Virus genome (UHGV): UHGV-1550212
DNA length: 64,000 nt
Direction: 5' to 3' (one strand)
From: a virus
Notes under the pieces: model-generated
Seen by the model: the letters and a program-made list of their open reading frames with translations, nothing else
Told to the model about the DNA's origin: nothing
Databases searched by the model: none
Made by a program: the position numbers and the translations under genes
In this document: positions 6,371 through 53,137 of the stretch, one piece after another
How the letters are laid out: each line of letters begins with the position of its first letter
Numbering within the stretch: the first letter of the stretch is position 1

Positions 6371-6390
6371 TAGTTGTAATATTGCGCAAA

Positions 6391-6425
6391 AAGAAAGCCG
6401 AACTGAATTTCAGTTCGGCTTTCTT
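6391..6425. terminator. bidirectional rho-independent terminator hairpin
   Basis: perfect 15-bp stem aagaaagccgaactg / cagttcggctttctt with 5-nt loop, A-run before and T-run after; between convergent genes. Confidence 0.6.
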
Positions 6426-6446
6426 TTTGCATACGCTTATGCTATG

Positions 6447-25482: not shown

Positions 25483-26505
25483 TCATTGTTGTTTATGCCA
25501 GCCATATGATGCCTGACCAGCATCATACACTTCTACGAAGCCATGGTCGTACATAAAATCTTCATTACGAGTGCCCTTGCCCCCATTAGTGCCAAGAATA
25601 CGGTCTGCGCCATGCATAAGCAGCATATTATTTGTGACATGTTGCTTTGTCAGCATATTGAACCAGTGTTTGCTATATGACAAGCCAAGACCATCAAAGC
25701 CCAGCTTTGTGTACACACCACCGTCAAACTTGCTTAAATCACAATATGATAACACAGATTCAGGGTCATATGTCTTGATAAAGTGCTTAAAGATTCGTTC
25801 AGCACCACCAACAACTTTGGTTGCTGCACAAAGACGTAGCAATTCATATTGATAGCGCTTATTGTATCGTGGACGACCAAATGTCATAAGTTGATGAATG
25901 ACATAACCACCAAGCAACTCAAGTGGATGACCTTCAATCAACGCAAGATTGATAAAATTGCCTGAGCACTTGCCTTGCAAATGATGTTCAATCAAAAATT
26001 GATTTGCAGTATACTTGTCAATTTCAACAACTTTAAGCTTGCGAGCATATACAATCTTTGATTTGTCTACGATTTGATGCTTGATGTGATTGATAACTTT
26101 CTTGGCGTCATCCCAGTCCCACACATGAATGCAATGAAAGCCTGCTGATTTGGCGATGTCTGTTTTCTTTGCATGAATATCACAAGGCAAATGCGAATCT
26201 TTTGCATCATGCATAAACAGATGTTCAAATGAATGTGTGCTGTTATGTGAAAATGCAGGATTGATGTTAATGACAATATTGTCATGTCGAAAATCGAAGA
26301 CTTCATCGCCAATGACAAAGTTGCGCTCAAAATTTATACCGACATGTTTGAGTAACACTTGATGCCACACATCTTTATAGGCTGATTCAAGCTTGCTTAG
26401 CTCATCACAGTTTGCAATGTTTTTGTAACGTTGAATAGCAGCATCAAAGTCAAGATTGACTTCAGCGTAGTCTGCATTTTTATCGTAGTGAAATTTTGAG
26501 CTCAT
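25483..26505 (-). CDS. Vsr/DUF559-like nuclease-domain protein (paralog family; N-terminal nuclease module, extra C-terminal domain)
   Basis: NIVININPAFSHNS and GFHCIHVWDWDD match the family module; C-terminal GFVEVYDAGQ tail; ATG at 26505. Confidence 0.5.
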   Translation of the reverse strand: MSSKFHYDKNADYAEVNLDFDAAIQRYKNIANCDELSKLESAYKDVWHQVLLKHVGINFERNFVIGDEVFDFRHDNIVININPAFSHNSTHSFEHLFMHDAKDSHLPCDIHAKKTDIAKSAGFHCIHVWDWDDAKKVINHIKHQIVDKSKIVYARKLKVVEIDKYTANQFLIEHHLQGKCSGNFINLALIEGHPLELLGGYVIHQLMTFGRPRYNKRYQYELLRLCAATKVVGGAERIFKHFIKTYDPESVLSYCDLSKFDGGVYTKLGFDGLGLSYSKHWFNMLTKQHVTNNMLLMHGADRILGTNGGKGTRNEDFMYDHGFVEVYDAGQASYGWHKQQ

Positions 26506-26528
26506 GTGTATAATTTTGTATGAGATTA

Positions 26529-26536
26529 TTGTACAA
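26529..26536 (-). promoter_or_regulatory. TTGTACAA promoter-associated motif
   Basis: about 20 nt upstream of ATG 26505. Confidence 0.4.
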
Positions 26537-26612
26537 CATGCAAATGCATGTTGCATTTGATGCAAAGTACTGCGTACACAACATAAAGTACAAGTTTGTC
26601 TTTTGATAGACT

Positions 26613-27674
26613 TTACTTTGTATTGCTACGCGTCATTGTTAAATGACCGCAATCATACACATCAACTTCTGTTTTGCCAAGCATGCATGTATGACAATTT
26701 ATTTTGAAATCTGCTGCAGCGTAATCAGGATAGTTTAGTGGAGATTCTTTTGACAAATCAATTTCAATTGTGTCAGTAGTTTTAAGCTGTTCAGTACCTG
26801 CAATGATATCTGCAATAAGATTGATAACTTCTTCTTGTGAATCCCAATCAAACACAGTTATGCAACGATAGCCTACATCAAGTGCAAGTTTTGTTTTATT
26901 GTAATGGTATTGCGCACCAATAACATTGTTGTCTTTTGCTCGACCAGTTAAATATGCAAAACTAACAGTGCAGTTGTGCGTAACTGTTGGACAAATTTCT
27001 ATAAGTAACTTTGCAGGCTCATACTGCAAATCATATGTTTGATTATTGATGTTAAACTCGTACTGTGTATCAATTGCCAACTGTCGTAATAACGCATCAT
27101 GCCACATCATATTACATTTAGAAATTGTTTTGGATGACAATCTGCATTGAGGCAATTGACATGGCCAATCTACGCCGTACATTTGTTGTGTTGTTTGACG
27201 CATTTTGTTAACATCACCAAAATGATTGCCATATCGATGCTCTTTGGTTTTAAGCGACTGCTCAATATTGACATTGCCTACACAACCATAACGTTCAAGT
27301 TTTGTTGCAGCAGTTTTGCTAACATCACCATGTCCATTACCAAATTTGGCGACTTTAGTTGCAAGTATTTTATGACTTGGGCCAAATGCATTGCCATACA
27401 ATTCTTGTTTAGTCGCAAGCATTTTGTCGATATTACAACCAGCGCCATAAGTGTTATGCATAGTTTGCATACGCTGTCGAATAAATTTTGGCACAGATAA
27501 AGGACTTTCTACACCATATTTGCGTAAGCAACTGATTTTGCATGCGTACTTTTGCTTGATGACAGAATGTGCATTTCGACGTCCTATGTAAGTATTTTCT
27601 GATGTAGCAGCAAGCTCTGCATCTCTAAGAACTTCAAGTGCAGCAATTCGTGCTTCAATTTCTTCAGATGTCAT
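26613..27674 (-). CDS. RYG-repeat / Vsr-DUF559-like nuclease (putative free-standing homing endonuclease)
   Basis: seven ~21-aa tandem repeats each with R/K-Y-G (KYG, TYG, LYG, KFG, RYG, RYG, MYG); C-terminal LLIEICPTVTHNCT...GYRCITVFDWDS...VDVYDCGH. Confidence 0.55.
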   Translation of the reverse strand: MTSEEIEARIAALEVLRDAELAATSENTYIGRRNAHSVIKQKYACKISCLRKYGVESPLSVPKFIRQRMQTMHNTYGAGCNIDKMLATKQELYGNAFGPSHKILATKVAKFGNGHGDVSKTAATKLERYGCVGNVNIEQSLKTKEHRYGNHFGDVNKMRQTTQQMYGVDWPCQLPQCRLSSKTISKCNMMWHDALLRQLAIDTQYEFNINNQTYDLQYEPAKLLIEICPTVTHNCTVSFAYLTGRAKDNNVIGAQYHYNKTKLALDVGYRCITVFDWDSQEEVINLIADIIAGTEQLKTTDTIEIDLSKESPLNYPDYAAADFKINCHTCMLGKTEVDVYDCGHLTMTRSNTK

Positions 27675-27963: not shown

Positions 27964-28021
27964 TTAGCAAGTTTCCAAACTTAACGTACTTGTCGTTCCC
28001 CGGCTTGGGTGGCGCAGGTTG

Positions 28022-29737
28022 TCAAATCCAGCCGTAGTCGCTGTGGATAGCGAAGGTGAGATAAGCCAACTCGGGATACATACCCGTCTCCGCGAGAGCG
28101 TAATCCGACTCAATCAGCAACTTAGGTGCTGCTGTACCCTCAGCGGTTAATTCCACACTTGATGCAAGGTCATATGGCATGAATACACATCCCTGGTTGA
28201 CATTCTCTACGTCAACGCCGTCAGCAGTCTTGTTCGTACGAAGAACGAGAACAGTGTTATCGTTCAGCGGCTGCTTAGGATTGCAATAGATTTTAATGCC
28301 AGCCAAGTCACCTGCATAATACAGGTTCTTGTTGTCCTGTACCAGCGTATTGTCAAGAGCTGCAACAAAGTTCTTCTGAGCCTTAATTGCAACCAAGGCA
28401 ATCGTATTGACCACAGCAGCATCACCAGCACCGAAACGCGACAGGTTGCCAATGATTGTCGAAGCAGCCAGGATACGAGTTGCGATACGAGCCTGACGGG
28501 TAATCTGGTTCTCAGCCGAGCTGTTCGATTCAGCGTTAGGAACCATGCCGAACTCAGCCGTGCGGTCTACACCCATCTTGTCAACGAATGCAGGAGCCTG
28601 GAATTCCGAGAATGCCTTGGCAGTCGAACCAGCGTAGCCAATGTACAAGTTCAGGTTGTAGCCCTGAGCAGCCAACAGCTGAGCATGTGTCGTAACACCA
28701 AGTGCACGCATGCGCTTCAGACCATTGTCGTTGATTGACTGCGTGATTTCATTCTGCATTGCATTCTTGATGATTGCAACTGCATCCAAACCGCGAGCAC
28801 GGAGGTCCTTAACCTGGCGACGAGTCAGAGCACCCCAAGTCTGGTACGTCTTAACTTCGATAGCCTTTGAGAAGGTGCGGAGCTCCAGCATGTTCGGGTT
28901 GCCAGCCTCAGCCTCAGAACGAGACATTGGATTGCCGTCAAGGTCATCCATTGCAGCGAAGCCGTGGATGTGTTCGTCACCAGCCGAAACCAGGTCGAAC
29001 ATAACCTCAGTCATGCCAGTCAGCATGTCAGTTACAGCACCTGTAGCGTCAACCGAGTAGATTTTCGATGCAGCCATTGCAACATCAGCCAACGACTTGT
29101 CAGGAGCAACAGTCATTGCGCCACCAGCGCCAACGGTATATACGCCTTCATTGCGAACTACGAGGTAGCCTGCAACACGCGATACCTGTACGAACGTTAC
29201 CTTGGCAGCAAGCTCACCAGCAGCTGAACCGCCGATGTACAGAACTTGACCCTTCTTGAGGCCATGAACCATTGTCTGCGAAGCAACATTGTACAACTCC
29301 TTCCACTTGATGAGGAAGTAGCGAGGACCCTTGGCTGCGTTCAACTTGCCACCACCATACACGTAGTCTACATAGTCCAGCTGAACCAGCGGGCTGTATA
29401 CAGGAATGGCCGGGAGCAGGTCGAACAGAATCGTGTTGGCTGCGATGTTCATGTTCAGAGCCAGAACATTGGCAGCTACATCGATTGAACCACGCTTACG
29501 CGACGGGTCATGGAACTGTGCTTGCGTACCTGGGTCAGCAGGGAAAGCGACCGGACCTACGCCATTGAGATTCTGCGAATACGTCGACTCAAACGACTCG
29601 TTCATATACTGAACGTTCTGAGCGATTGATGCGAGCAGATACTTCTTAGCGGGCGAAAGCTTGGAGTCAAACGACTCATCAAGAACAGGGCCCCACTTTT
29701 TCAGCAATGCATCAATCTGTGTACGTTTTGCGTTCAT
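28022..29737 (-). CDS. major capsid protein (T4 gp23-like)
   Basis: N-terminus MNAKRTQIDALLKKWGPVLDE parallels the gp23 N-terminal pattern; 571 aa; markedly GC-rich C-ending codon usage; followed by a strong terminator. Confidence 0.7.
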   Translation of the reverse strand: MNAKRTQIDALLKKWGPVLDESFDSKLSPAKKYLLASIAQNVQYMNESFESTYSQNLNGVGPVAFPADPGTQAQFHDPSRKRGSIDVAANVLALNMNIAANTILFDLLPAIPVYSPLVQLDYVDYVYGGGKLNAAKGPRYFLIKWKELYNVASQTMVHGLKKGQVLYIGGSAAGELAAKVTFVQVSRVAGYLVVRNEGVYTVGAGGAMTVAPDKSLADVAMAASKIYSVDATGAVTDMLTGMTEVMFDLVSAGDEHIHGFAAMDDLDGNPMSRSEAEAGNPNMLELRTFSKAIEVKTYQTWGALTRRQVKDLRARGLDAVAIIKNAMQNEITQSINDNGLKRMRALGVTTHAQLLAAQGYNLNLYIGYAGSTAKAFSEFQAPAFVDKMGVDRTAEFGMVPNAESNSSAENQITRQARIATRILAASTIIGNLSRFGAGDAAVVNTIALVAIKAQKNFVAALDNTLVQDNKNLYYAGDLAGIKIYCNPKQPLNDNTVLVLRTNKTADGVDVENVNQGCVFMPYDLASSVELTAEGTAAPKLLIESDYALAETGMYPELAYLTFAIHSDYGWI

Positions 29738-29825
29738 GATTGAATTTGTTTGTTATTGAAAGTGAAACATATATTTCTGTATAATATGTATAGAACTACT
29801 GACATTGATTGAATTGTGAAAATGG

Positions 29826-31217
29826 TCATTTTTCAATCTTTTTGAGCAATGCATGACCACAATCATAGACTTCGACGAAGCCTGACGCAATCATTTGTTG
29901 CCTATCAAACCCATTGTCAAGTAGATGTTCCCATGTCTTTGTATTGTGCCAATGCAATTGAATTGATGATTTATCTGTACTAAGCTGCGGATTTTTTGAA
30001 AAGTCTGCACAGTCAATTTTGTCACCGTTAAGATGCTTACGAATGCATTCAATGACAGTGTCGTGGTCATCCCAGTCCCATATTGTTATGCATACATAGC
30101 CATGTTGTAATGCAATTTGTGTCTTGTCAAAATGACTATCATGTCTCTTTGGCCTATTACGCTTTGTGCGCTTAGTAATATATGCATATGAGTATGTTGA
30201 GTTATGCGAAAATGTTGGATTCACTTCAATCAACAATTTGCAATGTTCATTTTCATAATGCAAGTCATATGAAAAGCCAAGTAGCTTAACATCGTCATAA
30301 CTGCAATCAATGTTAAGCTCTTGTTGCAACTTATCATGCCAAAATTGATTTGGCTTAGATATTATGTTGCCTTGACTGTTTATGCAGTTAGAAGTCATAC
30401 ATGACCATGGCACGCCATAACGCTCAATGTTTGTTTTGTTTGCACTTGCTTGAATTTTTGACAATGGGCCCCATGGATGACCATACTTTGCACGCTTGAC
30501 ATCTGCACCACGTTTAGCAACTTCACGATAATCGCCATAACGCTCTTTTCTTGTAGCAAGCATTTTTGCAATATTGCCCGCGCCACGAGAGCCATATCTA
30601 AGCTCTTTAGTCTTTTGAGCTTTGGCGTAATCACCACAAAATGCATTGCCATATCGAGCAATTTTTGTTGCTTTCATTTTTTCAATGTTGCCTGCACCAG
30701 CATTGCCATAACGTTCAAGTTTTGTTTGCTTGGACAATTCAACATTGCCAAATTTGTTGCCATAACGCACTAATTTTGTTTCTTGTGAACGTTGACGTAT
30801 TTCTTGCACTTGTGCACAGTATTCTACGCCATAGCGTTTTAACATTGTTATTCGTTGATTATATGCACGTTTAATAGGTGCATGCGATGTTCGTTTTGGC
30901 CCATATTTAACAAACTCAGTAGATGCAAGTAATTCATCACGCTCACGTTCAAGTTCTGCAATTCGTTGTTGTATATGGACATCATACACAGGCTGCTCAG
31001 AAATGTCATCAATAGCTGTCGTTTCTAATTTAGCAAGTTTGCGTTTAAGAGCTTTTGTTGTTTGCGTGCAGCTCATTTTTATCAATGCATGTGCATGTCT
31101 GCCACAGTCAAGTACAATGTTAGGCTCATTTGCAAGGCGTTCATCACGTTTACATTCTGCAGCATGTATTGCATCAATAAGTTGTCGTCTCTTTACATTA
31201 TATTCGTCTTGTGTCAT
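29826..31217 (-). CDS. RYG-repeat / Vsr-DUF559-like nuclease (putative homing endonuclease)
   Basis: tandem repeats (KRYG, VRYG, ERYG, ARYG, LRYG, ERYG, AKYG, ERYG); C-terminal FSYDLHY...LLIEVNPTFSHNS...GYVCITIWDWDD...FVEVYDCGH. Confidence 0.55.
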   Translation of the reverse strand: MTQDEYNVKRRQLIDAIHAAECKRDERLANEPNIVLDCGRHAHALIKMSCTQTTKALKRKLAKLETTAIDDISEQPVYDVHIQQRIAELERERDELLASTEFVKYGPKRTSHAPIKRAYNQRITMLKRYGVEYCAQVQEIRQRSQETKLVRYGNKFGNVELSKQTKLERYGNAGAGNIEKMKATKIARYGNAFCGDYAKAQKTKELRYGSRGAGNIAKMLATRKERYGDYREVAKRGADVKRAKYGHPWGPLSKIQASANKTNIERYGVPWSCMTSNCINSQGNIISKPNQFWHDKLQQELNIDCSYDDVKLLGFSYDLHYENEHCKLLIEVNPTFSHNSTYSYAYITKRTKRNRPKRHDSHFDKTQIALQHGYVCITIWDWDDHDTVIECIRKHLNGDKIDCADFSKNPQLSTDKSSIQLHWHNTKTWEHLLDNGFDRQQMIASGFVEVYDCGHALLKKIEK

Positions 31218-31950: not shown

Positions 31951-32646
31951 TCATCGTACAGTGAATGAATTATCGTCATCTTCTGTAGTAGTTGGGTCAT
32001 CAATTACATCGTGGCCAATACCTGACATGGGCTCTGGCTCAGGTTCCGGTTCAGGTTCCGGTTCAGGTTCCGGTTCAGGCTCCGGTTCAGGTTCCGGTTC
32101 AGGTTCCGGTTCAGGTTCCGGTTCCGGTTCCGGTTCAGGTTCCGGTTCAGGTTCCGGCTTGGGCTTTGATGAATAGTTAAACATCTTGTGAATCCATTTG
32201 CACCACCATTTGTGACATGCATGTGCGCCATCATGATAATACGCTTGCAGCTCCATTGGAATTGCATGATATGCTTTGTCATGTGACATACCTTTGAATA
32301 TTCGCAAGTACACATAGCACAAGCAATATGCAATGTAGTACATAAGCGGTGATGCAAGCAGCCACCACCAGCTAAGCACATTGCATGCTGCAAGCACAAT
32401 AAGTACAAGCAACGTCGCAAGTGTTACAAAGATGAATTGCTTTGCATGCACAGCTTCATGCTTCAAGGTCTCAGAGTATCTGCTAAGTGTGTCATCATAT
32501 GACTTATCACTTCTTATGAAGCACATTGCACACAACGACATTGCATAATAATGTGAAAATGGAATGCATGGCTGGTCGATGACAAGCATTGGTCCAGCAA
32601 ACCACAGTCGCCACTGAGATTTATTTGGCAGTGTTGCAGTTTTCAT
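31951..32646 (-). CDS. membrane protein with HExxH motif and long (Pro-Glu)n repeat
   Basis: HEAVH motif next to two hydrophobic helices, then about 25 PE dipeptides and an acidic tail. Confidence 0.5.
32029..32160 (-). repeat. hexanucleotide tandem repeat (ggttcc/ggttca)n encoding (Pro-Glu)n
   Basis: about 22 near-perfect 6-bp units with a 12-bp super-period. Confidence 0.9.
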
Positions 32647-35704: not shown

Positions 35705-38700
35705 TTAGCCACGAATCAAGTCAACCAAGCGTTGCTGTTCAGGAGTCAATGAAGACTTTCCGCTGCCATCAATGTTTTCGTTAACGAAACCGACTGGCTG
35801 CTTAGTCGAATATGACTTGATTGCAGCCCAGTTACGTGAACGATAGAATGCTGCGACATCTGACTCATTTACGAAAGTGCGAACTGCTGCCTGAGTAGCA
35901 ATCAATGACTTCTGTTCAGGAGTCAAGCTTTCATAAATGTACTTGTATGCTGTTGGCATATGCTTCAGATACAATGGTGTATGGTCAATTGGCTGCAGGT
36001 TCTCATCCAAGACTGCTACACCAGCAGCATCATAGCGAGTTGCAAGCTGCTTTGTTTGACGACGCAATGCAGCAATTTCATGCTTGATGCTTGTCAAGCA
36101 TTCATCAGTTGCTTGTGCGCCAAGATATGTGCGAAGCATATCAGACAGCATCTTCTGATTTGCATCGGTCAAATCACCTGCAACTTCAATGCCAGTCAGC
36201 TGGCCATCTTTGCTGATGACTACAGAAATTGTAGAACCGTCGCGTTCAACTGTGCGGAAGTCAAAGTCATCGTATGACTTATCCTTAAGGACAGCTTCAC
36301 GAATATTGTCATCTACGCCTTCATTGACCATGCTCATGCATTCCTCAACATCTACGTCAAGTCCAAGCTCTTCTGCAGTTTCAGCAATCTTTTCTGCAAG
36401 CTGAGCTTTATTCTCAACTTTGTCAAGGTCTGCTGCATCTGATACAGCATCGACAAGTTCATCTGCCTGTGCACGAGTAATCGTTGAAGCATCAACAAGG
36501 CCATCAATGATTTGCTCTACATCTGCAGGTGTCGGCTTGTTGTCTTCTGCTGCTTCATTGATAAACTTGGCAGTCTTTGGCTTGTAGCTAAGCTTGCCCT
36601 CATTGACCATCTCATCCTGCAATTGTGCAGCGATGTATGCAATTAGCAATGACTTGTTGGCTTCAAGTTCATCGACTGCTTCAGCAGACTTTTGAGCTTT
36701 GATGAGTTCATCGTAAGCTGCTGCAACTTTGTCATCCATCGTAGACTTGTCAGGGTCAATGTTTTTGATGCATGTCTTGACAATATCATCCTGATAGAAC
36801 TTGTCAATGATTGATTTGTCTGTGTCAGAGTATGTTGCATATAACTTGTCTGCGACAATTGATTCATTGACAATCTTGCCTGGCTCAGATGCAGGAACAA
36901 GAGTCCACTTACCATCAACTTCTGCAACAATGCCTGAAGTCGATTCGCCATAAGTGACTGTTAGACGAGTGCCTGCTTCATTGTTGTCAATTGTGTTGAC
37001 GACTGCTTCGAATTCATTACCATCAGCGTCATAGATTTTGATGCTGTCACCGACAGCAGCTTCATCTACTGGTGCTTCGAAGAACTCTTTGACAAAGTTC
37101 TGAACATCAACGGGCAGACTGTCATATGGCTGTGATGCATAGTACTCTGAGTCAGCATCAAGGTAATTCTTTGAAAGCAGCCAAGCTTTTCGAGTAGCAA
37201 CATCTGCAGCATTCCAAGCATCGACTGACTCATCGCAGTCATCGACAAGTGCAAGATACTCATGGTCTTTCTTGTCATCAAAACGAAGAGTAATCTTTTG
37301 TTCGGGCTTGCCAGCAGGCCAAACTTCGACTTCAATTTCTGTAGTGCCTGCAACATTTTTGACTGTGCCTACAACAATCTTGTCGCCTTTGTTGATGCCA
37401 TTAGACATGTCGTATGGTGCTTCAATAGATTCATCTGTCGACTGAGCTCGAATTGCTGCAGCAATAGCATTACGAGATTCATTGTCGAACATCTCCCATG
37501 TAGCATTCGCAGCATCTTCTACACCAATCTTGTCTTTGCCAACCTGCTCAATCAACTGATTGCGGTCAGCTACTGAAGCATTGTACCACCAGTCTGCAGC
37601 AGTGTCAGATGCTTCATTGACAAATGCATTGAGCAATGCAGTCTGAACGTTATCAGGCAACTTGTCAAAGTCAACAAGCTCTACGTCATCTGCAATATTT
37701 GCTTGCTTTGCTGTTGCTTTACGGCCATCTGCATCAGACTTATTCCAGTCATCAATGAATGCCTGTTCAGCAGCAGATTCATCAAGCGCTTTGACAGTTT
37801 CATATCGACCGTCATACAGCATGTACTTATCGCCTTCTTTGATGGCTACAGACTCCTTGCCATTGTACTTGAATGACACTTTGTCACCATTGAAGCCGGT
37901 CAATTCAGCTGTGATTTTATCGCCATTCTTGTCATACACTTCAACTGTCTGCTCTTCATCAATGTTCAAGTGCTTCTTGAGTGCATCTACAAGTTCTTTG
38001 CCAAGAGCGTCTTCATTGTCATGGGCTTGCTGGAAGCAATCTTCATCTGACTTGTCAGGCTGAACAGCTTTCAATGCTGTTGCCCGATTAAGCATTGACA
38101 TCGTGCCCCAGATTGACATGAAGCTTTTGCCCTCATTGTCTTGTGCTTCGGCTTCGTCAATTGCATCAATGTCTTTCTCAAGCATTGCATGATGAGCAAT
38201 GTCGATGCCAGACCATTTCGTCTTTGCATTATATGGCAAACCAATATGCTTCGACAAAATTGACTGACGTTGGTCATCTGTGAATGAATCCCAAGCTTCG
38301 CCAAGTGTTGCATGCTTTGCTTCATCAGCAGCAAATTCTGTTTCAATCTTAAGTTTGTGGTCCTTGTCAATCAGTTGCCACTTGGCATTTGGACGATAGA
38401 ACTCAGACAATGACAGCTTGTCAAGAATGACTTTGCGTTCGTCATCTGACAATTCGTCCCACTTGTTGTCAGCAGATTCATCGATGTTGACGAGTTCTTT
38501 CTCAATGAGATTCTTGTCAAGCATTGCATCAATGATTGGCTGCTGGGCTTCTGCTGGAATGTCTTTGAACGACTTAATTGCAATGACAGCGTCTTTGTCA
38601 TCAACTTTAGCAGCTTCAACAATTTCTGTCTTCACTTCATCAGTCAAAGCGCCCCAAGCAGCATCGAGATAATCAAAGTTGAGAGCTTCATCACATTCAA

Positions 38701-39820
38701 CAATGCCATACTGCTTTGCAATGTCATTGTGCTTGTCAAGATTGCTGTTGAGTTCAGCTTCAATTGCTGCTTTGATGTCATCAATTGACTTATCTTCAAC
38801 TTCAAGCTCAAGAGCTTTTGCAAGTTCAGTCAATGCTGCATCATCAAGCTTGCTAATGTCATAAGGCTTAGCATCTTCATTTGTGAAGTCAATGCCAAGC
38901 AAAGACATTGCTTGCTTCTTGTTTTCTTCTGAGAGTGCATCGAATGCAGTTGCAAGACCGACATCGGTGTAGTCGCACCCAACTTCGTCAAGTAATGCTT
39001 CGACTTTCTGGATGTTTTCTACGCCAACTTCGTTAGCATCAGCATTGTTGTATGCCTCAACAAAACGTGATTGGTTTGTCATGGTAGTGAAATCTTCTAT
39101 TGATTCGTTTATGAGTTGCTGTTTGAGTGCATCCAATGATGCTGAGCCAATCAATGCATCAGGGAATAGCTTCTGCAACATACCTGTACGTGCAAGCTCA
39201 ATCAATTGGAGCATCAATGAGTTTGGCGAGTCTTCGTCATCTACAGATTCACAAATGAGAGTGTCTTTTGATTCATTAACTGAACCGACAAGATTGAACT
39301 CTGCATTCGAAAAGCCTGGCTGTGCAACCAAATCAAATGTCACGATTTTGAGAAGCTGAACTCTGCCAGTAGTTGGATTGACTACGCCAAGGGCGCGACT
39401 TGAAATGAACAATGGCGAACCTGCTGTAACAATTGCCCATGCAATGCGACCTGCAGGCGTATCAAGAATTGTAATGTAGCCTTCAAAACGTCGTTTTTCA
39501 GGATTCCATTCAATACTGTCCAATCTGTGGCTTACGTTTCCATAACGTACAGTACGTCGCTTAACATGTTCAAGTTCGCCAAGAAGTCGCTTTGCTTTAA
39601 TTGCAGGTTGCAATGCCTGTACTTGAGCAAAGTAATTCTCAAAGTCATACGTGCGCCCATTTTCGTTTTTCTGGTCCATGTATGCATACACGCCAAAAAG
39701 ACGACCAAGTGCGCCGCTTGGCACATGAGAATCTTCTGCTTCAACTACAAACTGACAATCTGCGCGGCTTTCAAGCATAAGTGAGGCTTCCCTGCCTTTG
39801 TACTTATATGACTTTGCCAT
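35705..39820 (-). CDS. prohead protease-like N-terminal domain fused to ~1200-aa acidic scaffold-like region
   Basis: N-terminal ~190 aa with GELEHVKRR and LFISSRALGVV (gp21-like His/Ser context); remainder highly acidic with nine aliphatic-N-E motifs; ATG at 39820. Confidence 0.5.
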   Translation of the reverse strand: MAKSYKYKGREASLMLESRADCQFVVEAEDSHVPSGALGRLFGVYAYMDQKNENGRTYDFENYFAQVQALQPAIKAKRLLGELEHVKRRTVRYGNVSHRLDSIEWNPEKRRFEGYITILDTPAGRIAWAIVTAGSPLFISSRALGVVNPTTGRVQLLKIVTFDLVAQPGFSNAEFNLVGSVNESKDTLICESVDDEDSPNSLMLQLIELARTGMLQKLFPDALIGSASLDALKQQLINESIEDFTTMTNQSRFVEAYNNADANEVGVENIQKVEALLDEVGCDYTDVGLATAFDALSEENKKQAMSLLGIDFTNEDAKPYDISKLDDAALTELAKALELEVEDKSIDDIKAAIEAELNSNLDKHNDIAKQYGIVECDEALNFDYLDAAWGALTDEVKTEIVEAAKVDDKDAVIAIKSFKDIPAEAQQPIIDAMLDKNLIEKELVNIDESADNKWDELSDDERKVILDKLSLSEFYRPNAKWQLIDKDHKLKIETEFAADEAKHATLGEAWDSFTDDQRQSILSKHIGLPYNAKTKWSGIDIAHHAMLEKDIDAIDEAEAQDNEGKSFMSIWGTMSMLNRATALKAVQPDKSDEDCFQQAHDNEDALGKELVDALKKHLNIDEEQTVEVYDKNGDKITAELTGFNGDKVSFKYNGKESVAIKEGDKYMLYDGRYETVKALDESAAEQAFIDDWNKSDADGRKATAKQANIADDVELVDFDKLPDNVQTALLNAFVNEASDTAADWWYNASVADRNQLIEQVGKDKIGVEDAANATWEMFDNESRNAIAAAIRAQSTDESIEAPYDMSNGINKGDKIVVGTVKNVAGTTEIEVEVWPAGKPEQKITLRFDDKKDHEYLALVDDCDESVDAWNAADVATRKAWLLSKNYLDADSEYYASQPYDSLPVDVQNFVKEFFEAPVDEAAVGDSIKIYDADGNEFEAVVNTIDNNEAGTRLTVTYGESTSGIVAEVDGKWTLVPASEPGKIVNESIVADKLYATYSDTDKSIIDKFYQDDIVKTCIKNIDPDKSTMDDKVAAAYDELIKAQKSAEAVDELEANKSLLIAYIAAQLQDEMVNEGKLSYKPKTAKFINEAAEDNKPTPADVEQIIDGLVDASTITRAQADELVDAVSDAADLDKVENKAQLAEKIAETAEELGLDVDVEECMSMVNEGVDDNIREAVLKDKSYDDFDFRTVERDGSTISVVISKDGQLTGIEVAGDLTDANQKMLSDMLRTYLGAQATDECLTSIKHEIAALRRQTKQLATRYDAAGVAVLDENLQPIDHTPLYLKHMPTAYKYIYESLTPEQKSLIATQAAVRTFVNESDVAAFYRSRNWAAIKSYSTKQPVGFVNENIDGSGKSSLTPEQQRLVDLIRG

Positions 39821-39953
39821 ATTTGAATTGTGTTTGAAAGTTTGCAAATTTTTGTTGTTATTGATTATATATGCAAGGCAGACTTGTGTGTTGAAAAATT
39901 GCAAAATTTCAGTTATGTGTACATAACAAAACCATCCAAATCAATTCAATTAT

Positions 39954-40622
39954 ATGTCAACAAACAATCATGGCAAGCTCAGATTGCTTGAGCTCAAAGA
40001 AGCACAGCCATATGACACGCTCAAAATTGGCATTGACGTATCAGTAGATGCTACTGGCATGTGCATGATATTTGGCAAAACTGTTGCGCTGTTCAAATTT
40101 ACGCCGCACTTGCCACCAGAAGATGACAGTTCAGATGATGTGAATTTTGTGCAGTTCAACAAAATCTATCTGCAAACATCATCTTCTGCAAGAGAACGCT
40201 CAAAAATGCATACTCGACACACACTTGCAAACAAGATTGTTGACGCGATTGATATGTTCATGCAGGAAATTTGGCCGAATAGCCCAGCAAACATTCAAAT
40301 TGTTACAGAAGGGTCTGCATATGGCTATGCCGCACACAACTCTAACAGCTTGGTAGAACTTGCTGAATTTAGAAGCGTGATTTTAGAAAGAGTCTATCAT
40401 CGTTGGCCACTCGGCACGCATCTAAGTCTTGACGTTATTGCGCCAAAATCATTGAAGAAACATGCAACCGGTGACGGCAAAGCAGACAAACTAAAGATGA
40501 TTGAAGCTGCAATTGCTAAGTTGACACACATTCATTGGGCAGGCAAAATTGACGATGAATGCGATGCATTGCATCTTTGTCTGTATGAGCCATTAAGCAA
40601 TCCTGAACCACGACTTTGGTGA
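39954..40622 (+). CDS. RuvC-like Holliday junction resolvase
   Basis: KIGIDVSVDATG (catalytic Asp region), IVTEGSAYG, KSLKKHATGDGKADKLKM and DECDALHLCLY parallel RuvC motifs. Confidence 0.55.
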   Translation: MSTNNHGKLRLLELKEAQPYDTLKIGIDVSVDATGMCMIFGKTVALFKFTPHLPPEDDSSDDVNFVQFNKIYLQTSSSARERSKMHTRHTLANKIVDAIDMFMQEIWPNSPANIQIVTEGSAYGYAAHNSNSLVELAEFRSVILERVYHRWPLGTHLSLDVIAPKSLKKHATGDGKADKLKMIEAAIAKLTHIHWAGKIDDECDALHLCLYEPLSNPEPRLW

Positions 40623-41167: not shown

Positions 41168-42961
41168 TCAATTTTGTGTTGCAACGTCATCAGTCTTGTT
41201 ATCAACTGGCTCATCGTCGACATGTGTATCAACATCAATGCCAGAAGCTGCAGCAAGTGAAACATCATTAGCGACGCCTTGTTGTTCAAGTTGTTGTTGA
41301 GCTTGCTTTGTTTGAATTGCGACAAGTCTTGCAGCTTCCATTGCAAGCTTAAGATTCTCTTGAAGTTCGATATCAAGCTGTTCAGCATTAGCTTGCATGT
41401 CTTCTTTGCTTAAGCCAAGATACTTGTTGATAAGCCAATTGCTTGAGAAGAATGGGCGTTCAGTATCAGACATGTTAAGTGAACGAACAAGTGAACTGCG
41501 AATGTCTTCGATTGTATGAATACGCTTCTGAAGCAATGTGAGCTCCATTTGCGTCTGGAAATGATTGTATCTATTGAATTTGAGTTTTAGCGCATTCAAA
41601 ACTTCATTGTCGCCAATGTAGTTATTGTTTTTGATGCACATCAAAACATACACAGGCTTCAATATGATTGCAATGCCAAATCTACGCATCAAAGCTGAAA
41701 TAAAGATTGCAAAACGACGCTCATCACGCTGAATTGACTCTTCAGAAACATTCCACATGCCACCGCCATCATCGAATCTGCTTAGAGGCAGCTTTGACAG
41801 ACGTTGTAAGTTATTGCGGAAATATGTGACTGCTGAAGTATCAGATAAGTCAGGCATGCCTGTGCCAATTGTTTGAATGTTGGGTTTGCCTGCATTAGTG
41901 TCAGCCATCCAAAATTCGCTATTGAAAGGCACAGATGCTTCGCCATTAACTTGGAGTTCGCCGGTTTGATTGTCGAATTCAATTTTTTCGTGGTACTTAT
42001 TCATTGCTTTACGCAATGTTTCCTGTGCAGCAGCTTTCAGTTTACCGCCAGTAGGAATTGTGATAAGTGAACGAAAACGAGAAGCTGTCGTAGCATATGC
42101 AATGCGACTTCGCTCCAAAATCCTGAGCAAGTTGAATGCACGAACAAGACGCTCAAAATATGACATAGACCCAACCATGTCATCGTTCCACTGCAAATAT
42201 GCTACTTGCGAATCAAGCAAGTTGATTTTTTCTGAGTTGTTAGACACAAATGCTGGTGCTTTGACATCAAACATTGTATGTGTCTTGAACATATCTTGTT
42301 GAGACTTATCATACTGCCAGAAGAACATTTCACCCTTCTTCATAGGCGTCAATGCAAATGCATTCAACTTTTTGATGCCAACAATATCAGTCGGCTCATC
42401 TGCATTATCAAACACAATCTCATAGCCAAGTCTGCCTCGTACAAGATATTCACGCAACAATGCTCTAACATCTTGTTTGCGAGGTTCAGAGTTCAACCCA
42501 TTGAATGCATACATCAAATAGACTTGCTTGAATGCATCCATAAAGTCATCTTTGATTGTCTGCTTTGCTGTGTCGTCTATCTCAAGTTTATCGATGTCAC
42601 AAAAATCAGGCTCGCAAAAGAAATTACTATCGGAATTGAACACGATGCACTCATCAATCATGCGGTCAAGAATGTCGTCGAGTTCCGGTTCTGCACTTAA
42701 GATGTCATATTTTTTGGCTCGAAGATAACTTGTCAATCCAAAAAGATTCTTTTTAGGTGACTCTTTCTGATTGAACACGTCATCAGTAGACAACACAACA
42801 ACTTCTTGGTCATTGATGTTATGCTCACCTGTATATGCTGCTTTCTCCAAATCTGCATCAGACCCAGACTTGTGCACATTCAATTGCTGCAATGGACTGT
42901 CTTTCGGAATTGAGCGTAATGCATCAGTTCCCAGATATGTTCGTTTGGTCTTTTTAGCCAT
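41168..42961 (-). CDS. portal protein (gp20-like), putative
   Basis: 597 aa, basic N-terminus and acidic C-terminal tail; segment KDDFMDAFKQVY...RALLREYLVRGRLGYEIV fits the portal pattern; located upstream of protease/scaffold. Confidence 0.5.
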   Translation of the reverse strand: MAKKTKRTYLGTDALRSIPKDSPLQQLNVHKSGSDADLEKAAYTGEHNINDQEVVVLSTDDVFNQKESPKKNLFGLTSYLRAKKYDILSAEPELDDILDRMIDECIVFNSDSNFFCEPDFCDIDKLEIDDTAKQTIKDDFMDAFKQVYLMYAFNGLNSEPRKQDVRALLREYLVRGRLGYEIVFDNADEPTDIVGIKKLNAFALTPMKKGEMFFWQYDKSQQDMFKTHTMFDVKAPAFVSNNSEKINLLDSQVAYLQWNDDMVGSMSYFERLVRAFNLLRILERSRIAYATTASRFRSLITIPTGGKLKAAAQETLRKAMNKYHEKIEFDNQTGELQVNGEASVPFNSEFWMADTNAGKPNIQTIGTGMPDLSDTSAVTYFRNNLQRLSKLPLSRFDDGGGMWNVSEESIQRDERRFAIFISALMRRFGIAIILKPVYVLMCIKNNNYIGDNEVLNALKLKFNRYNHFQTQMELTLLQKRIHTIEDIRSSLVRSLNMSDTERPFFSSNWLINKYLGLSKEDMQANAEQLDIELQENLKLAMEAARLVAIQTKQAQQQLEQQGVANDVSLAAASGIDVDTHVDDEPVDNKTDDVATQN

Positions 42962-42981: not shown

Positions 42982-44220
42982 CTATACACGTCTTGTCAAT
43001 TTGACATGACCGCAGTCATCTGCAAGCAGTTTAACATGACCGCAGTCATCTGCAAGCAGTTTAACATGACCGCAGTCATAAACTTTGACGAAGCCTGCAT
43101 CAATCATAGTTTGCTCATCATGATTGCAGTCAAGCACATGTGTATGAGTTTTCATATTGTACCAATGCAAGCCGATGTAAAAGTCAGTCTTGTGATATGC
43201 GTCAGTATATAATCGTGGGTCATCTATAGACAAATCAAGTTCGACGCAGTCAGCAGTCTGCAGTTGTTCTGTGTCAGTTAGCAATGATTTGACAAGCTTG
43301 ACTACAGCATCAAATGACATCCAATCAAATACAGTGATGCATCTATAGCCATGTTGCATAGCTGTGCAACATTTGTCAAAATGCGTAGTTGATGCAATTG
43401 GCTTGTTGACTGTAGAACGACCAGTAGCAAAATCAAATGCAAATGTGCTGTTATGCGTAAATGACGGATTGACATCAATTAGCAAATTGTCATATCGCAA
43501 ATCAAATGCGTAGCAATCTACGTCATGTTCATATTCAAAATCAACACCAGTATGCTCAAGTAGCATATCATGTAACAAGACGTTTGGCTTTGTAATGATT
43601 TTGCCATTTGCAAGTCTGCACTTCTGAGTTAAACAATGCCAAGGCACGCCATATCGTTCAAGTGTAGTGTTGCTAATCTTCTGCAAATTGCCAAAACCGC
43701 TGCCATAGCGTAATTGCTTTGTGACTGTTTGCTGTGCAACATTACCATTAGCATGACCAAACTTGTTGATGTTTGTTTGCTTGCGCTTAGCATTTGCAGT
43801 TGCAATATCAACAGATTCAAGTGACTCAAGAAATTTTGACATGTCGCCAAGCCCATTGCCATATAGTTGACGTTTAGTGTCAACAACTTTTGTCATGTTC
43901 CAGTGCTTGTAGCCATATCGAGCTTCTTTTGTCGCAAATGCTTTGTCATAGTTGCCAAAGCCTGCATGACCATATCGTTCAACTTTTGTTGCAGCAATTT
44001 TGTCTGAGACTTCTTTAAGCTGATGTTTGTATTCAACGCCAAACTTGCGCAAATTTGATATGCGAATGTTGAACACTCGTTTGACTTTTGTATGCGTAGA
44101 GCCTTTGTCAAGCTTTGCATATGGAATTTGTGCAAGTGCAGCGTCTCTTTCATCTTCAAGCTCTCTTATTCGAGCTTCAAGTGCATCACCAGCCAAAACT
44201 TCTATGCGTATAGTCTGCAT
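42982..44220 (-). CDS. RYG-repeat / Vsr-DUF559-like nuclease with C-terminal tandem decapeptide repeat
   Basis: N-terminal ALEARIRELEDERD coiled coil, RYG repeats, LLIDVNPSFTHNS...GYRCITVFDW...FVKVYDCGH; C-terminus DCGHVKLLAD repeated three times. Confidence 0.55.
   Translation of the reverse strand: MQTIRIEVLAGDALEARIRELEDERDAALAQIPYAKLDKGSTHTKVKRVFNIRISNLRKFGVEYKHQLKEVSDKIAATKVERYGHAGFGNYDKAFATKEARYGYKHWNMTKVVDTKRQLYGNGLGDMSKFLESLESVDIATANAKRKQTNINKFGHANGNVAQQTVTKQLRYGSGFGNLQKISNTTLERYGVPWHCLTQKCRLANGKIITKPNVLLHDMLLEHTGVDFEYEHDVDCYAFDLRYDNLLIDVNPSFTHNSTFAFDFATGRSTVNKPIASTTHFDKCCTAMQHGYRCITVFDWMSFDAVVKLVKSLLTDTEQLQTADCVELDLSIDDPRLYTDAYHKTDFYIGLHWYNMKTHTHVLDCNHDEQTMIDAGFVKVYDCGHVKLLADDCGHVKLLADDCGHVKLTRRV
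43001..43080 (-). repeat. 30-bp tandem direct repeat (about 2.7 copies) at the 3' end of the nuclease gene
   Basis: ttaacatgaccgcagtcatctgcaagcagt repeated. Confidence 0.85.
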
Positions 44221-48405: not shown

Positions 48406-49604
48406 TAACTGTCATACGACCAGTGACCACAGTCATACACTGGCACAAATCCAGTGTCAAGCATTTCTTGCTCAATAAAGCCATCATCAAGCAAATGTTC
48501 ACCTGACTTCGTATTGACCCAATGCTTCTTAATTGTGCATTCATCAACCACAAAGGGATTAAGTGCATTGTCAGTGCAATCAATGAACACATTATTCAAA
48601 TGCGCGTCAATGACATGCAGCACAATTTCTGGGTTGTGCCAATCAAATATCATAAGTGGCGTGTAGCCACATACAATTGCAAGTTGTTGCTTCCACCAAT
48701 GATAGTTTGGCTGTTTTGCTTCTGCGGCATTTCGTTTAAAGCCATACACGCTATTATGAGTATGCGTCGGGTTAACGTCAATTAGCAGATTGCCATAATA
48801 CAGGTCATATGATGTTATGCCAACATCATGTTCAAACTCAAAATGCACACCAAGATGTTCTTCAATGTATGATTGCCACCATCTGTTTGGCGCAGATATG
48901 ATTTGCCCATTTGCTTGCATACATTTATTTGTCATGCAAAACCATGGCACACCGTAACGTTCCATACAGGTTTTTGAAATTGCAGCAAGCCATTCATCTT
49001 TGTCTCTATGCGGCCATGCATAACCATAACGCAGACGACATGTTTGTTGAGCTTTAGCAACGATTGGCGCTAAACGTTCACCGTATATTTCACGTTTAGT
49101 TGCGATGGCTTTGCGTGGATTAGTCCATCCAGCATCACCCCATCGCTCAAGCTTCGTTTGCTGAGATTTTTCAACAATCAGTTCAAGATTCTCACCATAT
49201 TTTTGACGACGAGTTTGCATTGCTGCAACATAATCTGTAATGCATCTATGGCCATACAAACGTTCTTTTGTCGCACTATGTGCTTTATCGCCATATGAAC
49301 TGCCGTAGCGTGCAACTTTAGTGGCAATTGTTTGCTTGATGTTGCCTGCTTTAGAACCATAACGAGCTTCTTTAGTTGCTACGCATTTTTGTTTGACTTC
49401 TGCTCTGTTCCAATTATGCTCAACGCCATGTTTACGAAGATGGCCAATTTTCATGTTGTACACGTTTTTGATATGACCATGAGATGTCTTACGTGGTGCA
49501 TATCGTACAAATGGTGTTTCTGCAAGCAACTTATCTCGTTCAGCTTCAAGCTCTTTAATTCGAGCTTCAAGAGCTTCACCAGTCAAATGCTCTACATGTT
49601 TCAT
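48405..49604 (-). CDS. RYG-repeat / Vsr-DUF559-like nuclease (putative homing endonuclease)
   Basis: N-terminal ALEARIKELEAERD, tandem RYG repeats, LLIDVNPTHTHNS...GYTPLMIFDWHN...FVPVYDCGH. Confidence 0.55.
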   Translation of the reverse strand: MKHVEHLTGEALEARIKELEAERDKLLAETPFVRYAPRKTSHGHIKNVYNMKIGHLRKHGVEHNWNRAEVKQKCVATKEARYGSKAGNIKQTIATKVARYGSSYGDKAHSATKERLYGHRCITDYVAAMQTRRQKYGENLELIVEKSQQTKLERWGDAGWTNPRKAIATKREIYGERLAPIVAKAQQTCRLRYGYAWPHRDKDEWLAAISKTCMERYGVPWFCMTNKCMQANGQIISAPNRWWQSYIEEHLGVHFEFEHDVGITSYDLYYGNLLIDVNPTHTHNSVYGFKRNAAEAKQPNYHWWKQQLAIVCGYTPLMIFDWHNPEIVLHVIDAHLNNVFIDCTDNALNPFVVDECTIKKHWVNTKSGEHLLDDGFIEQEMLDTGFVPVYDCGHWSYDS

Positions 49605-50089
49605 TCGTGTTTGCCAGTTTGAAATAACGAATCAATTGGGATGTGAATACCAGGTTTGGATTGAATGTTCCATCCGCGCGCCAAACCATTAAGTACGCAG
49701 CTCGTAAGGTAAGAAAACGCGTTTTGAGTTACTGTTGGGTCAAACATTTGCCACTTTGACGCCAAAATTAACATGGCTTCTGCTGCGACATCTGCTTGTA
49801 AGTCTTTGTCCCTGTAGTATAAACGTCTCTGCACATGTTTGATAAGCAACTCAAACATGTGTATAAGTTTATTTGACAGCTGTCCAGATACTTTGCATGC
49901 GCATATTTCTGCACAAAGTTCTTTGCTGTTGATGTAATAGTTTGATGGCTGACCTCGCTTCTTTGTGTTTGCAGCTTCTTCACGAAGTTGGTCTTCAAGT
50001 TGTGTCAACATGTCATCATCTGACACGTATTGAATATGCTTGTCTTCTGGTAGTTTAGATTCTATTGGTTGTAAGTTTTGCAGTGGCAT
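49601..50089 (-). CDS. late transcription sigma factor (T4 gp55-like), putative
   Basis: YYINSKELCAEI...AMLILASKWQ...NAFSYLTSCVLNGLARGW parallels gp55 conserved regions; ATG at 50089 downstream of TTGTACAA motif at 50119. Confidence 0.5.
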   Translation of the reverse strand: MPLQNLQPIESKLPEDKHIQYVSDDDMLTQLEDQLREEAANTKKRGQPSNYYINSKELCAEICACKVSGQLSNKLIHMFELLIKHVQRRLYYRDKDLQADVAAEAMLILASKWQMFDPTVTQNAFSYLTSCVLNGLARGWNIQSKPGIHIPIDSLFQTGKHE

Positions 50090-50153
50090 AGCAGTGAGCA
50101 TTAAAATTCCTATATAAATTGTACAACGCTTTGTGCACATTTGCAATCATAAA

Positions 50154-52993: not shown

Positions 52994-53137
52994 AAGATAT
53001 TGTGAATTTGGTTGTTTATTCTTAACAAAATATGTACATACAGATGCAACAGATGATATGTCAGATACACAAAGCTGCATAAAATGACCAGACTTGCAAA
53101 TAAATTTAAGCAAGTCTGGTCATCAGTTTTGATTGCA

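Follow-up and report, generated by a model that had tools for sequence, protein, structure and literature searches.

The gene considered here lies in a 64-kb window (the whole stretch of DNA that was analyzed, 64,000 nucleotides of the virus genome UHGV-1550212), which covers ~36% of a roughly 176-kb genome and belongs to a large myovirus. On its minus strand, an uninterrupted open reading frame (ORF) at 35705-39820, here called the fusion gene, runs from an ATG at 39820 to a stop codon at 35705-35707 and encodes 1371 amino acids (aa). A preliminary description of the window had proposed that this ORF joins a prohead-protease-like domain to a strongly acidic, low-complexity, scaffold-like region in a single polypeptide, which might process itself at nine aliphatic-N-E motifs; the polypeptide is indeed encoded by one intact ORF. 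A mechanical ORF list begins the gene farther upstream, at a TTG at 39904 (35705-39904, 1399 aa, as in the JGI call). We rejected this start because homologues begin at a position equivalent to the ATG (MSNKRITYKG... and MAKHITYQG..., aligned with MAKSYKYKG... of the fusion protein), and the gene is thus taken as 35705-39820. Its features are collected in Table 1.

A gp21-type protease domain at the N-terminus

Sequence profile, fold and catalytic residues all support the assignment of the N-terminal domain to the T4 gp21-type proteases. The two His and Ser contexts to which the preliminary description had drawn attention are both present (GELEHVKRR at residues 81-89, LFISSRALGVV at 137-147), and within them H85 and S140 align with the gp21 motifs GELxH and SRGxG; a His/Ser/Asp triad has been reported for T4 gp21 and SPN3US gp245 (PMC5694885). 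The profile search which that description had called for returned PHROG 207, 'head maturation protease', with an E-value of 5e-32, and a profile built from the protease domains of 12 diverse clade members matches T4 gp21 (5jbl) with an E-value of 1.3e-8. The Pfam S77 model, PF03420 (Peptidase_S77), matches residues 43-157 with an E-value of 8.4e-5 but, at 22.6 bits, stays under its gathering cut-off of 27; precomputed PF03420 matches are on record for many close homologues. The MEROPS S80 family of phiKZ gp175 (PF20034) gives 14.1 bits for the window protein, below the threshold of 23.4, whereas some members of its family have a precomputed match and one distant subfamily (P0040-P0051) passes. 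The domain has the gp21/assemblin fold and invariant H85, S140 and D163. The absence of a protease fold, which the preliminary description had regarded as fatal to its proposal, was thus not what we found, and the protease assignment stands.

Aliphatic-N-E motifs as putative sites of self-cleavage

The nine motifs occur exactly as first listed: SVNE183, LINE239, FVNE736, IVNE986, MVNE1074, FINE1089, MVNE1167, FVNE1319 and FVNE1348. Measured against 20,000 composition-preserving shuffles, this number is far beyond chance, since 1.24 +/- 1.1 copies of [VIL]NE are expected and none of the shuffles reaches 9, while hydrophobic-[VIL]NE-[SAGN] is found 8 times against 0.10 expected. Variants that lack the Asn, [VILMF]xE[SAG], are also in excess (14 versus 6.3 expected, p = 0.005). 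Outside the fusion protein [VIL]NE is rare, with 20 copies in 18,225 window residues, and these are clustered in few ORFs, often past a short N-terminal peptide.

Conservation of the sites was read from 26 aligned members of the family, the most distant of them 35% identical. At the six sites of the C-terminal 385 residues, every sequence has V/I/L at P3 and E at P1, P2 drifts (N, sometimes T, D, C or S), and P1' is S/A/G/N, with His at one site in four relatives. Fixed P3 and P1 together with a drifting P2 read as the signature of protease subsites, which would fit a T4-like (L/I)-x-E specificity; T4 cuts at (L/I)-x-E and phiKZ and SPN3US at x-x-E, in every case after Glu (PMC5694885). The site that would release the protease domain, VNE183/S, is kept clade-wide, appearing as LINE/S in Chryseobacterium phage MA9V-2, RINE/S in Prevotella Lak phage and RVNE/A in the uncultured phage LR756500. 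In the AlphaFold model of the C-terminal part, seven of the eight sites past the protease fall in linkers with a predicted local distance difference test score (pLDDT) below 50, which hold 43% of the residues (p = 0.013). Comparable motifs recur near the N-terminus of the major capsid protein (MCP), where two candidate propeptide sites align among the window phage, Sphingomonas phage PAU, MA9V-2 and Tenacibaculum phage pT24 (VLDE/S, KLNE/S, FINE/A and LITE/S at the first; YMNE/S, ALME/N, FLNE/S and NILE/S at the second). Enrichment, positional conservation, linker placement and the MCP propeptide motifs give the earlier suggestion of self-processing strong support in silico, and from them we infer cleavage itself; proteolysis after Glu in a hydrophobic-x-E motif is thus a putative activity of the window protease, based on motif statistics, alignments and a model.

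Other ORFs of the window that carry the motif include three on the minus strand. The product of a 1068-aa ORF at 6447-9653 has GFVNE19/A and further sites near residues 307, 449 and 470, and that of a 429-aa ORF at 50206-51495, which adjoins a head-fiber-like gene (51503-53080, Pfam Head_fiber_dimeric, E 6e-21), has NFVNE31/S. Both are of unassigned function and are candidate internal head proteins or protease substrates, by analogy with T4 capsid-targeting sequences, which their motif placement resembles (PMC5694885). In a 585-aa ORF at 23475-25232, four motifs (AVNE/A at 97-100, FVNE/A at 186-189, FVNE/S at 505-508 and YVNE/N at 520-523) flank a Dps/ferritin-like domain (PHROG 858, E 5e-10; Pfam DUF5856, residues ~197-311), and its product may be processed by the protease and packaged in the capsid.

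A modular extension with variable cassettes

With 147 Asp and 118 Glu (D+E 19.3%, net charge -120), the fusion protein is the most acidic ORF product in the window, and its description as strongly acidic holds. The label of low complexity does not: SEG masks just 63 of the 1371 residues, and the Shannon entropy in 40-residue segments (3.64-3.66 bits) equals that of the capsid protein. In the AlphaFold prediction for the C-terminal 1188 residues (pLDDT 57.5, predicted template modeling score 0.25), low-confidence linkers connect helical bundles and four small beta domains. Three of the beta domains lie in the variable middle, at about residues 625-668, 814-848 and 926-975, and the small beta domains bear a weak, non-significant resemblance in Foldseek to SH3/Tudor/Hfq-like barrels. 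The same middle region, residues 240-986, contains eight helix motifs of the type W-x2-[L/F/M]-[S/T]-D-x2-[R/K], as counted with a hand-built regular expression and no statistics.

The extension otherwise resembles no known family or structure in the collections searched. Residues 184-1371 have no match in Pfam, PHROG, PDB or BFVD; the full protein and a 13-sequence full-length profile gave nothing significant for any part against PDB; and Foldseek of the 1188-residue model returned zero matches at E <= 0.001 in BFVD and PDB. Self-BLAST found no internal repeats in the fusion protein, and a reading of the extension as a tandem-repeat array was rejected on this basis.

Among relatives that are 80-98% identical elsewhere, the length of the protein ranges from 1316 to 1575 aa because of six cassettes of 59-165 aa, each found at a fixed position in some relatives and missing from others. 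They are mutually unrelated, each a unique sequence and not a duplication, and none of the six has a match in Pfam. More distant relatives lack up to 224 of the 236 residues at 501-736. At the other extreme, a search with residues 1168-1371 of 1.84 billion representative sequences gave 10 hits, of which the five strong, full-length ones match at their own C-terminal ends, and the C-terminal module is the sole part of the extension that can also be detected in MA9V-2 (1109-1192) and pT24 (448-492, 42% identity), again at the C-termini. From the models and alignments, the region past the protease thus appears to be a modular multi-domain chain with swappable cassettes and not low-complexity filler.

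Table 1. Coordinates of the fusion protein's features and of head and tail genes nearby (site names give P1 residue and, after the slash, P1').
Feature	Coordinates	Strand	Remarks
T4 gp21-type (MEROPS S77) prohead serine protease domain, residues 1-183	39272..39820	-	ends at VNE183/S184 release site
LMLE17/S18, candidate N-terminal autocleavage site	39770..39781	-	clade-wide hydrophobic-x-E: SLILE/S, SMLFE/A, LLIIE/R
His85, putative catalytic histidine	39566..39568	-	invariant in 12 diverse clade members and family alignment
Ser140, putative catalytic serine (ISSRA)	39401..39403	-	invariant; aligns with T4 gp21 SR(G/A)xG
Asp163, putative third triad member	39332..39334	-	invariant in same alignments
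Linker between protease and next site, residues 184-239
INE239/S, candidate site closing 56-residue linker after protease	39104..39112	-	VTE, VCE or absent in distant relatives, hence less conserved
Variable acidic middle, residues 240-986	36863..39103	-	net charge about -89; holds FVNE736 and IVNE986
VNE736/A, candidate site	37613..37621	-	only in relatives having this cassette
VNE986/S, candidate site	36863..36871	-	V/L-x-E-S in 26/26 aligned relatives
Conserved C-terminal region, residues 987-1371	35708..36862	-	<=3 gapped positions per segment family-wide; 39-70% identity
VNE1074/G, candidate site	36599..36607	-	V/I-x-E in 26/26
INE1089/A, candidate site	36554..36562	-	I/V-(N/D)-E-(A/S) in 26/26
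VNE1167/G, candidate site	36320..36328	-	V, N, E invariant in 26/26
C-terminal module, residues 1285-1371, MPxAYKxIxESLTxEQ...TFVNE...RNW...	35708..35968	-	candidate anchor to capsid protein or portal
VNE1319/S, candidate site inside C-terminal module	35864..35872	-	N, E invariant; P3 V in 25/26, I in 1
VNE1348/N, candidate site 23 residues before C-terminus	35777..35785	-	V/I-(N/T)-E in all relatives
MCP N-terminus, candidate propeptide sites VLDE21/S and YMNE47/S	29597..29683	-	aligned in four clade members
Major capsid protein gene	28022-29737	-
Tail sheath gene, 946 aa	32710-35550	-
RuvC-like gene	39954-40622	opposite to fusion gene
T4-type portal protein gene, upstream neighbor in head module	41168..42961	-	Pfam Portal_T4 E 4e-59

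Relatives and other protease fusions

The same single ORF (1316-1661 aa) occurs in 51 metagenome proteins with 33-100% identity and is intact in >50 independent assemblies; this family is known from metagenomes only. An identical fusion protein is present on ENA metagenome contigs of 129-176 kb, for which the sample label (ZEEV15, SAMEA3664939) suggests a human gut origin. One ENA scaffold (ERZ28563254 scaffold_3549, positions 6001-6872), ~99% identical, has lost one nucleotide from the run of A in GAA TCA AAA GAC, at the equivalent of window ~39270. The deletion lies directly past the VNE/S release site and leaves a separate ORF of 192 aa for the protease alone. Either an assembly error near the contig end or a natural variant that parts the protease from its extension could explain it.

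Because none of 50,697 phage records matched in a megablast with 17 kb of the window, there is no close cultured relative in that collection. The MCP is 26-37% identical to those of Chryseobacterium phages MA9V-1 and MA9V-2, Sphingomonas phage PAU, Tenacibaculum phages PTm1 and pT24, Flavobacterium phage MaF61, Lak phages and some uncultured phages of 460-735 kb. Extensions of 350-1450 residues on gp21-type proteases occur throughout this clade of large phages, cultured ones included. Annotated records contain fusions of 527 aa in pT24 (BPT24_140), 1207 aa in MA9V-2 (MA9V2_209), 1347 aa in MA9V-1 (ORF151, 4,044 nt, also in its paper's table) and 1404 aa in MaF61 (ORF140), and ORF-finding revealed unannotated ones of 584 aa in Lak phage and 632 aa in LR756500. 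As in the window protein, the fusions of MA9V-1, MA9V-2, MaF61, pT24 and Lak comprise a protease domain, a hydrophobic-N-E/S release site and an acidic, [VIL]NE-rich extension, but outside the last ~80 residues the extensions cannot be aligned with that of the window. The D+E content is 17-22% in pT24, Lak, LR756500 and MaF61 and 16% in MA9V-2; the number of [VIL]NE motifs is 16 in MA9V-2, 13 in MaF61, 7 in pT24, 6 in Lak and only 2 in LR756500.

These genes are annotated in the cultured phages just as 'prohead core protein serine protease' or 'prohead scaffold', and our literature searches found no description of the protease-extension architecture; in the MA9V papers the gene is listed or annotated but not discussed. 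The combination of a protease and a long acidic extension in one polypeptide, as first proposed, is therefore real but not unique, since fusions are found clade-wide and herpesviruses share the logic (PMC11565193). A profile search with the protease domain shows stand-alone S77 proteins to be typically 195-212 aa, about one-sixth to one-seventh the length of the window protein; that search gave mostly proteins of 190-310 aa, many on short contigs, and is not a census of fusions. Phage contigs of 240-268 kb encode seven further S77 fusions (P0052-P0058) of 806-1123 aa with 8-10 [VIL]NE[SA] motifs and PT-repeat segments, a group whose sequences indicate that large phages have evolved or diversified long, apparently self-cleavable extensions more than once.

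Genomic setting

On the minus strand, the genes follow in the order portal, fusion gene, tail sheath, two small ORFs, a homing-endonuclease-like gene and MCP. Farther up from the fusion gene are genes for a head-closure protein, a DNA end protector, a head-fiber-like protein and a gp55-like late sigma factor. The gene lies in the head module between the portal and capsid genes, and no other scaffold-like ORF was found in the window. In MA9V-2 and pT24 the fusion gene is directly upstream of the capsid gene, the slot of the separate scaffold gene in PAU and T4-like phages.

Two classes of promoter-like sequences are apparent in the window. The first, TTGCA-N(~15)-TGTTGTACAAT(A/T), is sigma-70-like with an extended -10 and precedes replication and nucleotide-metabolism genes (those at 1026, 9767, 26613, 53138, 54572, 56724 and 59738). 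The second, [TC]ATA[CT]ATA[TA], has 10 minus-strand occurrences, seven of them 26-65 nt upstream of genes. It precedes the fusion, sheath and capsid genes and the 1068-aa ORF, as well as ribonucleotide reductase and topoisomerase genes, and is reminiscent of the T4 late promoter TATAAATA; the gp55-like gene is at 49601-50140. A repeat, TTTGCAAnnTTTCAA, upstream of the fusion gene was rejected as a general promoter motif, with 18 matches versus 13 expected.

Homing/HNH-endonuclease-like genes break up the structural module at 25483-26556, 26613-27674, 29826-31217 and 42982-44220, all on the minus strand. The 353-aa and 412-aa ORFs of this kind have repeated 'RYG..GfGN' motifs in common, and the latter ends with a perfect tandem repeat (DCGHVKLLAD x3) extending into the sequence that immediately precedes the portal gene. 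A minus-strand ORF of 231 aa (31951-32646), flanked by the sheath gene and the probable tube gene, encodes hydrophobic, membrane-like segments and an acidic repetitive tail, with weak Pfam matches to Tmemb_185A and to Trypan_PARP (residues 161-208), which is odd for a position in the tail module. The G+C content is 0.49 over the MCP gene (28001-30000) versus about 0.40 in the remainder of the window. A family-B DNA polymerase is divided between two minus-strand ORFs at 53138-54430 and 56724-58229, which cover positions 504-842 (430 aa) and 111-489 (501 aa) of the 856-position PHROG 262 profile; the halves are ~2.3 kb apart, and three ORFs, one of them dUTPase-like, occupy the gap.

A proposed protease-scaffold polyprotein

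We consider it fairly probable that the gene encodes a protease-scaffold (core) polyprotein that builds the core and then dices itself. This proposal draws on the computed fold and catalytic residues of the N-terminal domain, on the enrichment, conservation and linker location of the motifs, and on the acidity, modularity and synteny of the extension, from which we infer cleavage, scaffold function and anchoring. A single translation product would comprise the protease (H85/S140/D163) and the ~1190 acidic residues, whose small helical and beta domains would be arranged like beads on a string. The chain would co-assemble within the procapsid as a combined enzyme and core subunit, with one protease per scaffold chain. 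Contact with the shell or portal would most plausibly be made by the conserved C-terminal region, chiefly the terminal module with its invariant sites E1319 and E1348, and the variable acidic middle would be the space-filling core. Once the shell has closed, the protease would cut after Glu in hydrophobic-[V/I/L]-(N>T/D/C)-E / (S/A/G/N). A first cut would release the enzyme at E183, and possibly also at E17; the C-terminal anchor would then be detached (E1319, E1348), the remainder would be chopped at the inter-domain linkers, and the acidic fragments would leave, making room for DNA. With the same specificity, the enzyme would trim the capsid protein at its N-terminus and, in a few other head proteins, N-terminal targeting peptides. 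We estimate that 100-200 copies of a chain of 150 kDa would amount to 15-30 MDa, a core mass of the order implied by the copy numbers quoted for T4 (PMC5694885).

The part of the earlier description that remains least secure is the scaffold-like character of the extension, for which acidity, gene position and the lack of another candidate in the window argue, and several observations count against it. The extension has no sequence or structural similarity to T4 gp22, PAU gp152 or any known scaffold family. No ORF of the window matches a scaffold family, but only 64 of ~176 kb are covered, and a separate scaffold gene could sit elsewhere in the genome. A 1:1 ratio of protease to scaffold would be unusual in comparison with herpesviruses, where a scaffold-only product is in ~10-fold excess (PMC11565193), and T4, with 576 copies of gp22, ~1000 of internal proteins and ~100 of gp21 (PMC5694885). 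No internal promoter was found in the fusion gene, inside which [TC]ATA[CT]ATA[TA] has no match. Internal translation starts cannot be predicted because genes of the window lack Shine-Dalgarno sequences; Met247, just past the INE239 site, is kept in 81% of relatives. The AlphaFold models are only moderately confident (pLDDT 57-60), and a middle that tolerates the loss and gain of whole cassettes fits a spacer but equally fits dispensable cargo.

This last point leads to a possible but unlikely alternative, a protease-led cargo polyprotein in which small proteins ride into the procapsid, are freed at the linkers and stay in the head as internal or ejected proteins. Such proteins would be comparable to the T4 internal proteins or the inner-body and ejection proteins of phiKZ and SPN3US, and the cassettes would be host-specific accessory or anti-defense payloads. 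The main support comes from the six cassettes, unrelated and unique, that differ between phages >80-98% identical elsewhere; in addition, the units are predicted to be small folded domains with cleavage-motif linkers between them, and other window ORFs carry the motif past short N-terminal peptides, as T4 capsid-targeting sequences do (PMC5694885). However, the 497-residue block from 240 to 736 has no internal [VIL]NE, and most cassettes would not be freed singly unless weaker x-E sites were used. The cassettes match no Pfam family and nothing by fold, and residues 987-1371 are conserved, not variable. Moreover, every large fragment that cleavage would yield is strongly acidic (-6 to -60), which is unfavorable beside packaged DNA; the internal proteins of T4 are basic. 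A more specific form of this idea, which we regard as rather doubtful, is that the variable middle is a swappable cassette array: closely related phages would differ in the small acidic proteins that they pack into the capsid, and these, released by cleavage at the linkers, would be delivered along with the DNA for purposes such as counter-defense or host takeover. If so, the capsid protease gene would double as a hypervariable payload locus.

It is still less probable that the extension is an oversized targeting or regulatory propeptide, like those of phiKZ gp175 and SPN3US gp245, that delivers and restrains the enzyme and is then removed. The true scaffold would then be another protein encoded outside the window, which holds 36% of the genome, or the N-terminal region of the capsid protein itself. 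[quoted passage not shown] Nevertheless, targeting would need far less than ~1190 residues with at least eight internal sites and a net charge of -120, and the gp245 propeptide is probably just tens of residues long (from figures in PMC5694885). MA9V-2 and pT24 have no gene between the fusion and capsid genes, and the lack of a scaffold-family match in the window also argues against this reading. Finally, it is very improbable that the N-E motifs serve a structural role, for example by capping helices or marking the domain boundaries of a repeated module, in an uncut protein, perhaps an inner-body or decoration component: the case for cleavage is made in silico and site E1319 is in a moderately confident helix-rich module, yet the motif recurs between mutually unrelated domains, shows the conservation logic of protease subsites, appears in capsid-protein N-termini and unrelated ORFs, and directly follows a protease domain of a kind known to cut after Glu.

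Comparison with known systems

By analogy, the protease-scaffold fusion of herpesviruses would be the conceptually nearest system to the polyprotein proposed here, and the autoprocessing of phiKZ gp175 and SPN3US gp245 the nearest phage precedent. In herpesviruses (herpes simplex virus UL26/assemblin, with the nested scaffold-only UL26.5), one ORF encodes a protease of the same fold followed by the scaffold. The window ORF has this order of protease and putative scaffold, and the expected release and near-C-terminal maturation sites have candidate counterparts in E183, E1319 and E1348, conserved or invariant in the alignments. The cleavage motifs are different, herpesvirus proteases cutting at Ala/Ser. 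The scaffold-only excess of herpesviruses comes from an internal promoter, in contrast to the window gene with no promoter-like motif found inside it, and the window extension is three to four times longer, with eight or more internal sites and variable cassettes. Fusion in herpesviruses co-incorporates the enzyme with its substrate (PMC11565193).

Large myoviruses also encode the S80 proteases phiKZ gp175 and SPN3US gp245, divergent relatives of gp21 that cleave after the Glu of x-x-E and autocleave their C-terminal region. In SPN3US gp245 this occurs at AQE-203, and no gp22 counterpart is confirmed in these phages (PMC5694885). The window family differs in its aliphatic P3 (A/S/G in the phiKZ group) and in the length of the C-terminal part, probably tens of residues in S80 and ~1190 here. 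T4 itself has a stand-alone gp21 (MEROPS S77, PDB 5JBL) and separate, small core proteins (gp22, gp67 and gp68) in large excess, whereas in the window both functions are proposed for one 1371-aa chain in which P2 is strongly Asn-biased and the extension has no gp22 homology. PAU, of the same clade as the window phage (MCP 35% identical), has a homologous protease, gp151, and the gene order portal, protease, scaffold, capsid, but its protease (246 aa) and gp152 scaffolding protein (277 aa) are separate genes, and gp152 has no detectable similarity to the window extension (E 0.025). Enzyme and scaffold also share a reading frame, with a product that processes itself, in P2 gpO and the nested lambda C/Nu3 genes, but these are of unrelated protease families, much shorter (about 280-440 aa) and without multi-cassette middles.

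Implications

The window gene would be an oversized, modular variant of a known protease-scaffold design and not a new principle. For the clade of PAU, Lak and the Tenacibaculum and Chryseobacterium phages, it offers a concrete candidate for the scaffold, which may be the protease's own C-terminal extension. Variation in cassettes between near-identical phages is unexpected for a core assembly gene. The predicted consensus, hydrophobic-[V/I/L]-N-E / S/A/G, could be used to predict the mature termini of head proteins in these genomes, and the cultured relatives MA9V-1, MA9V-2 and MaF61 make the model directly testable. Phages and herpesviruses would then have in common not only a protease fold but also the design of a fused protease-scaffold gene.

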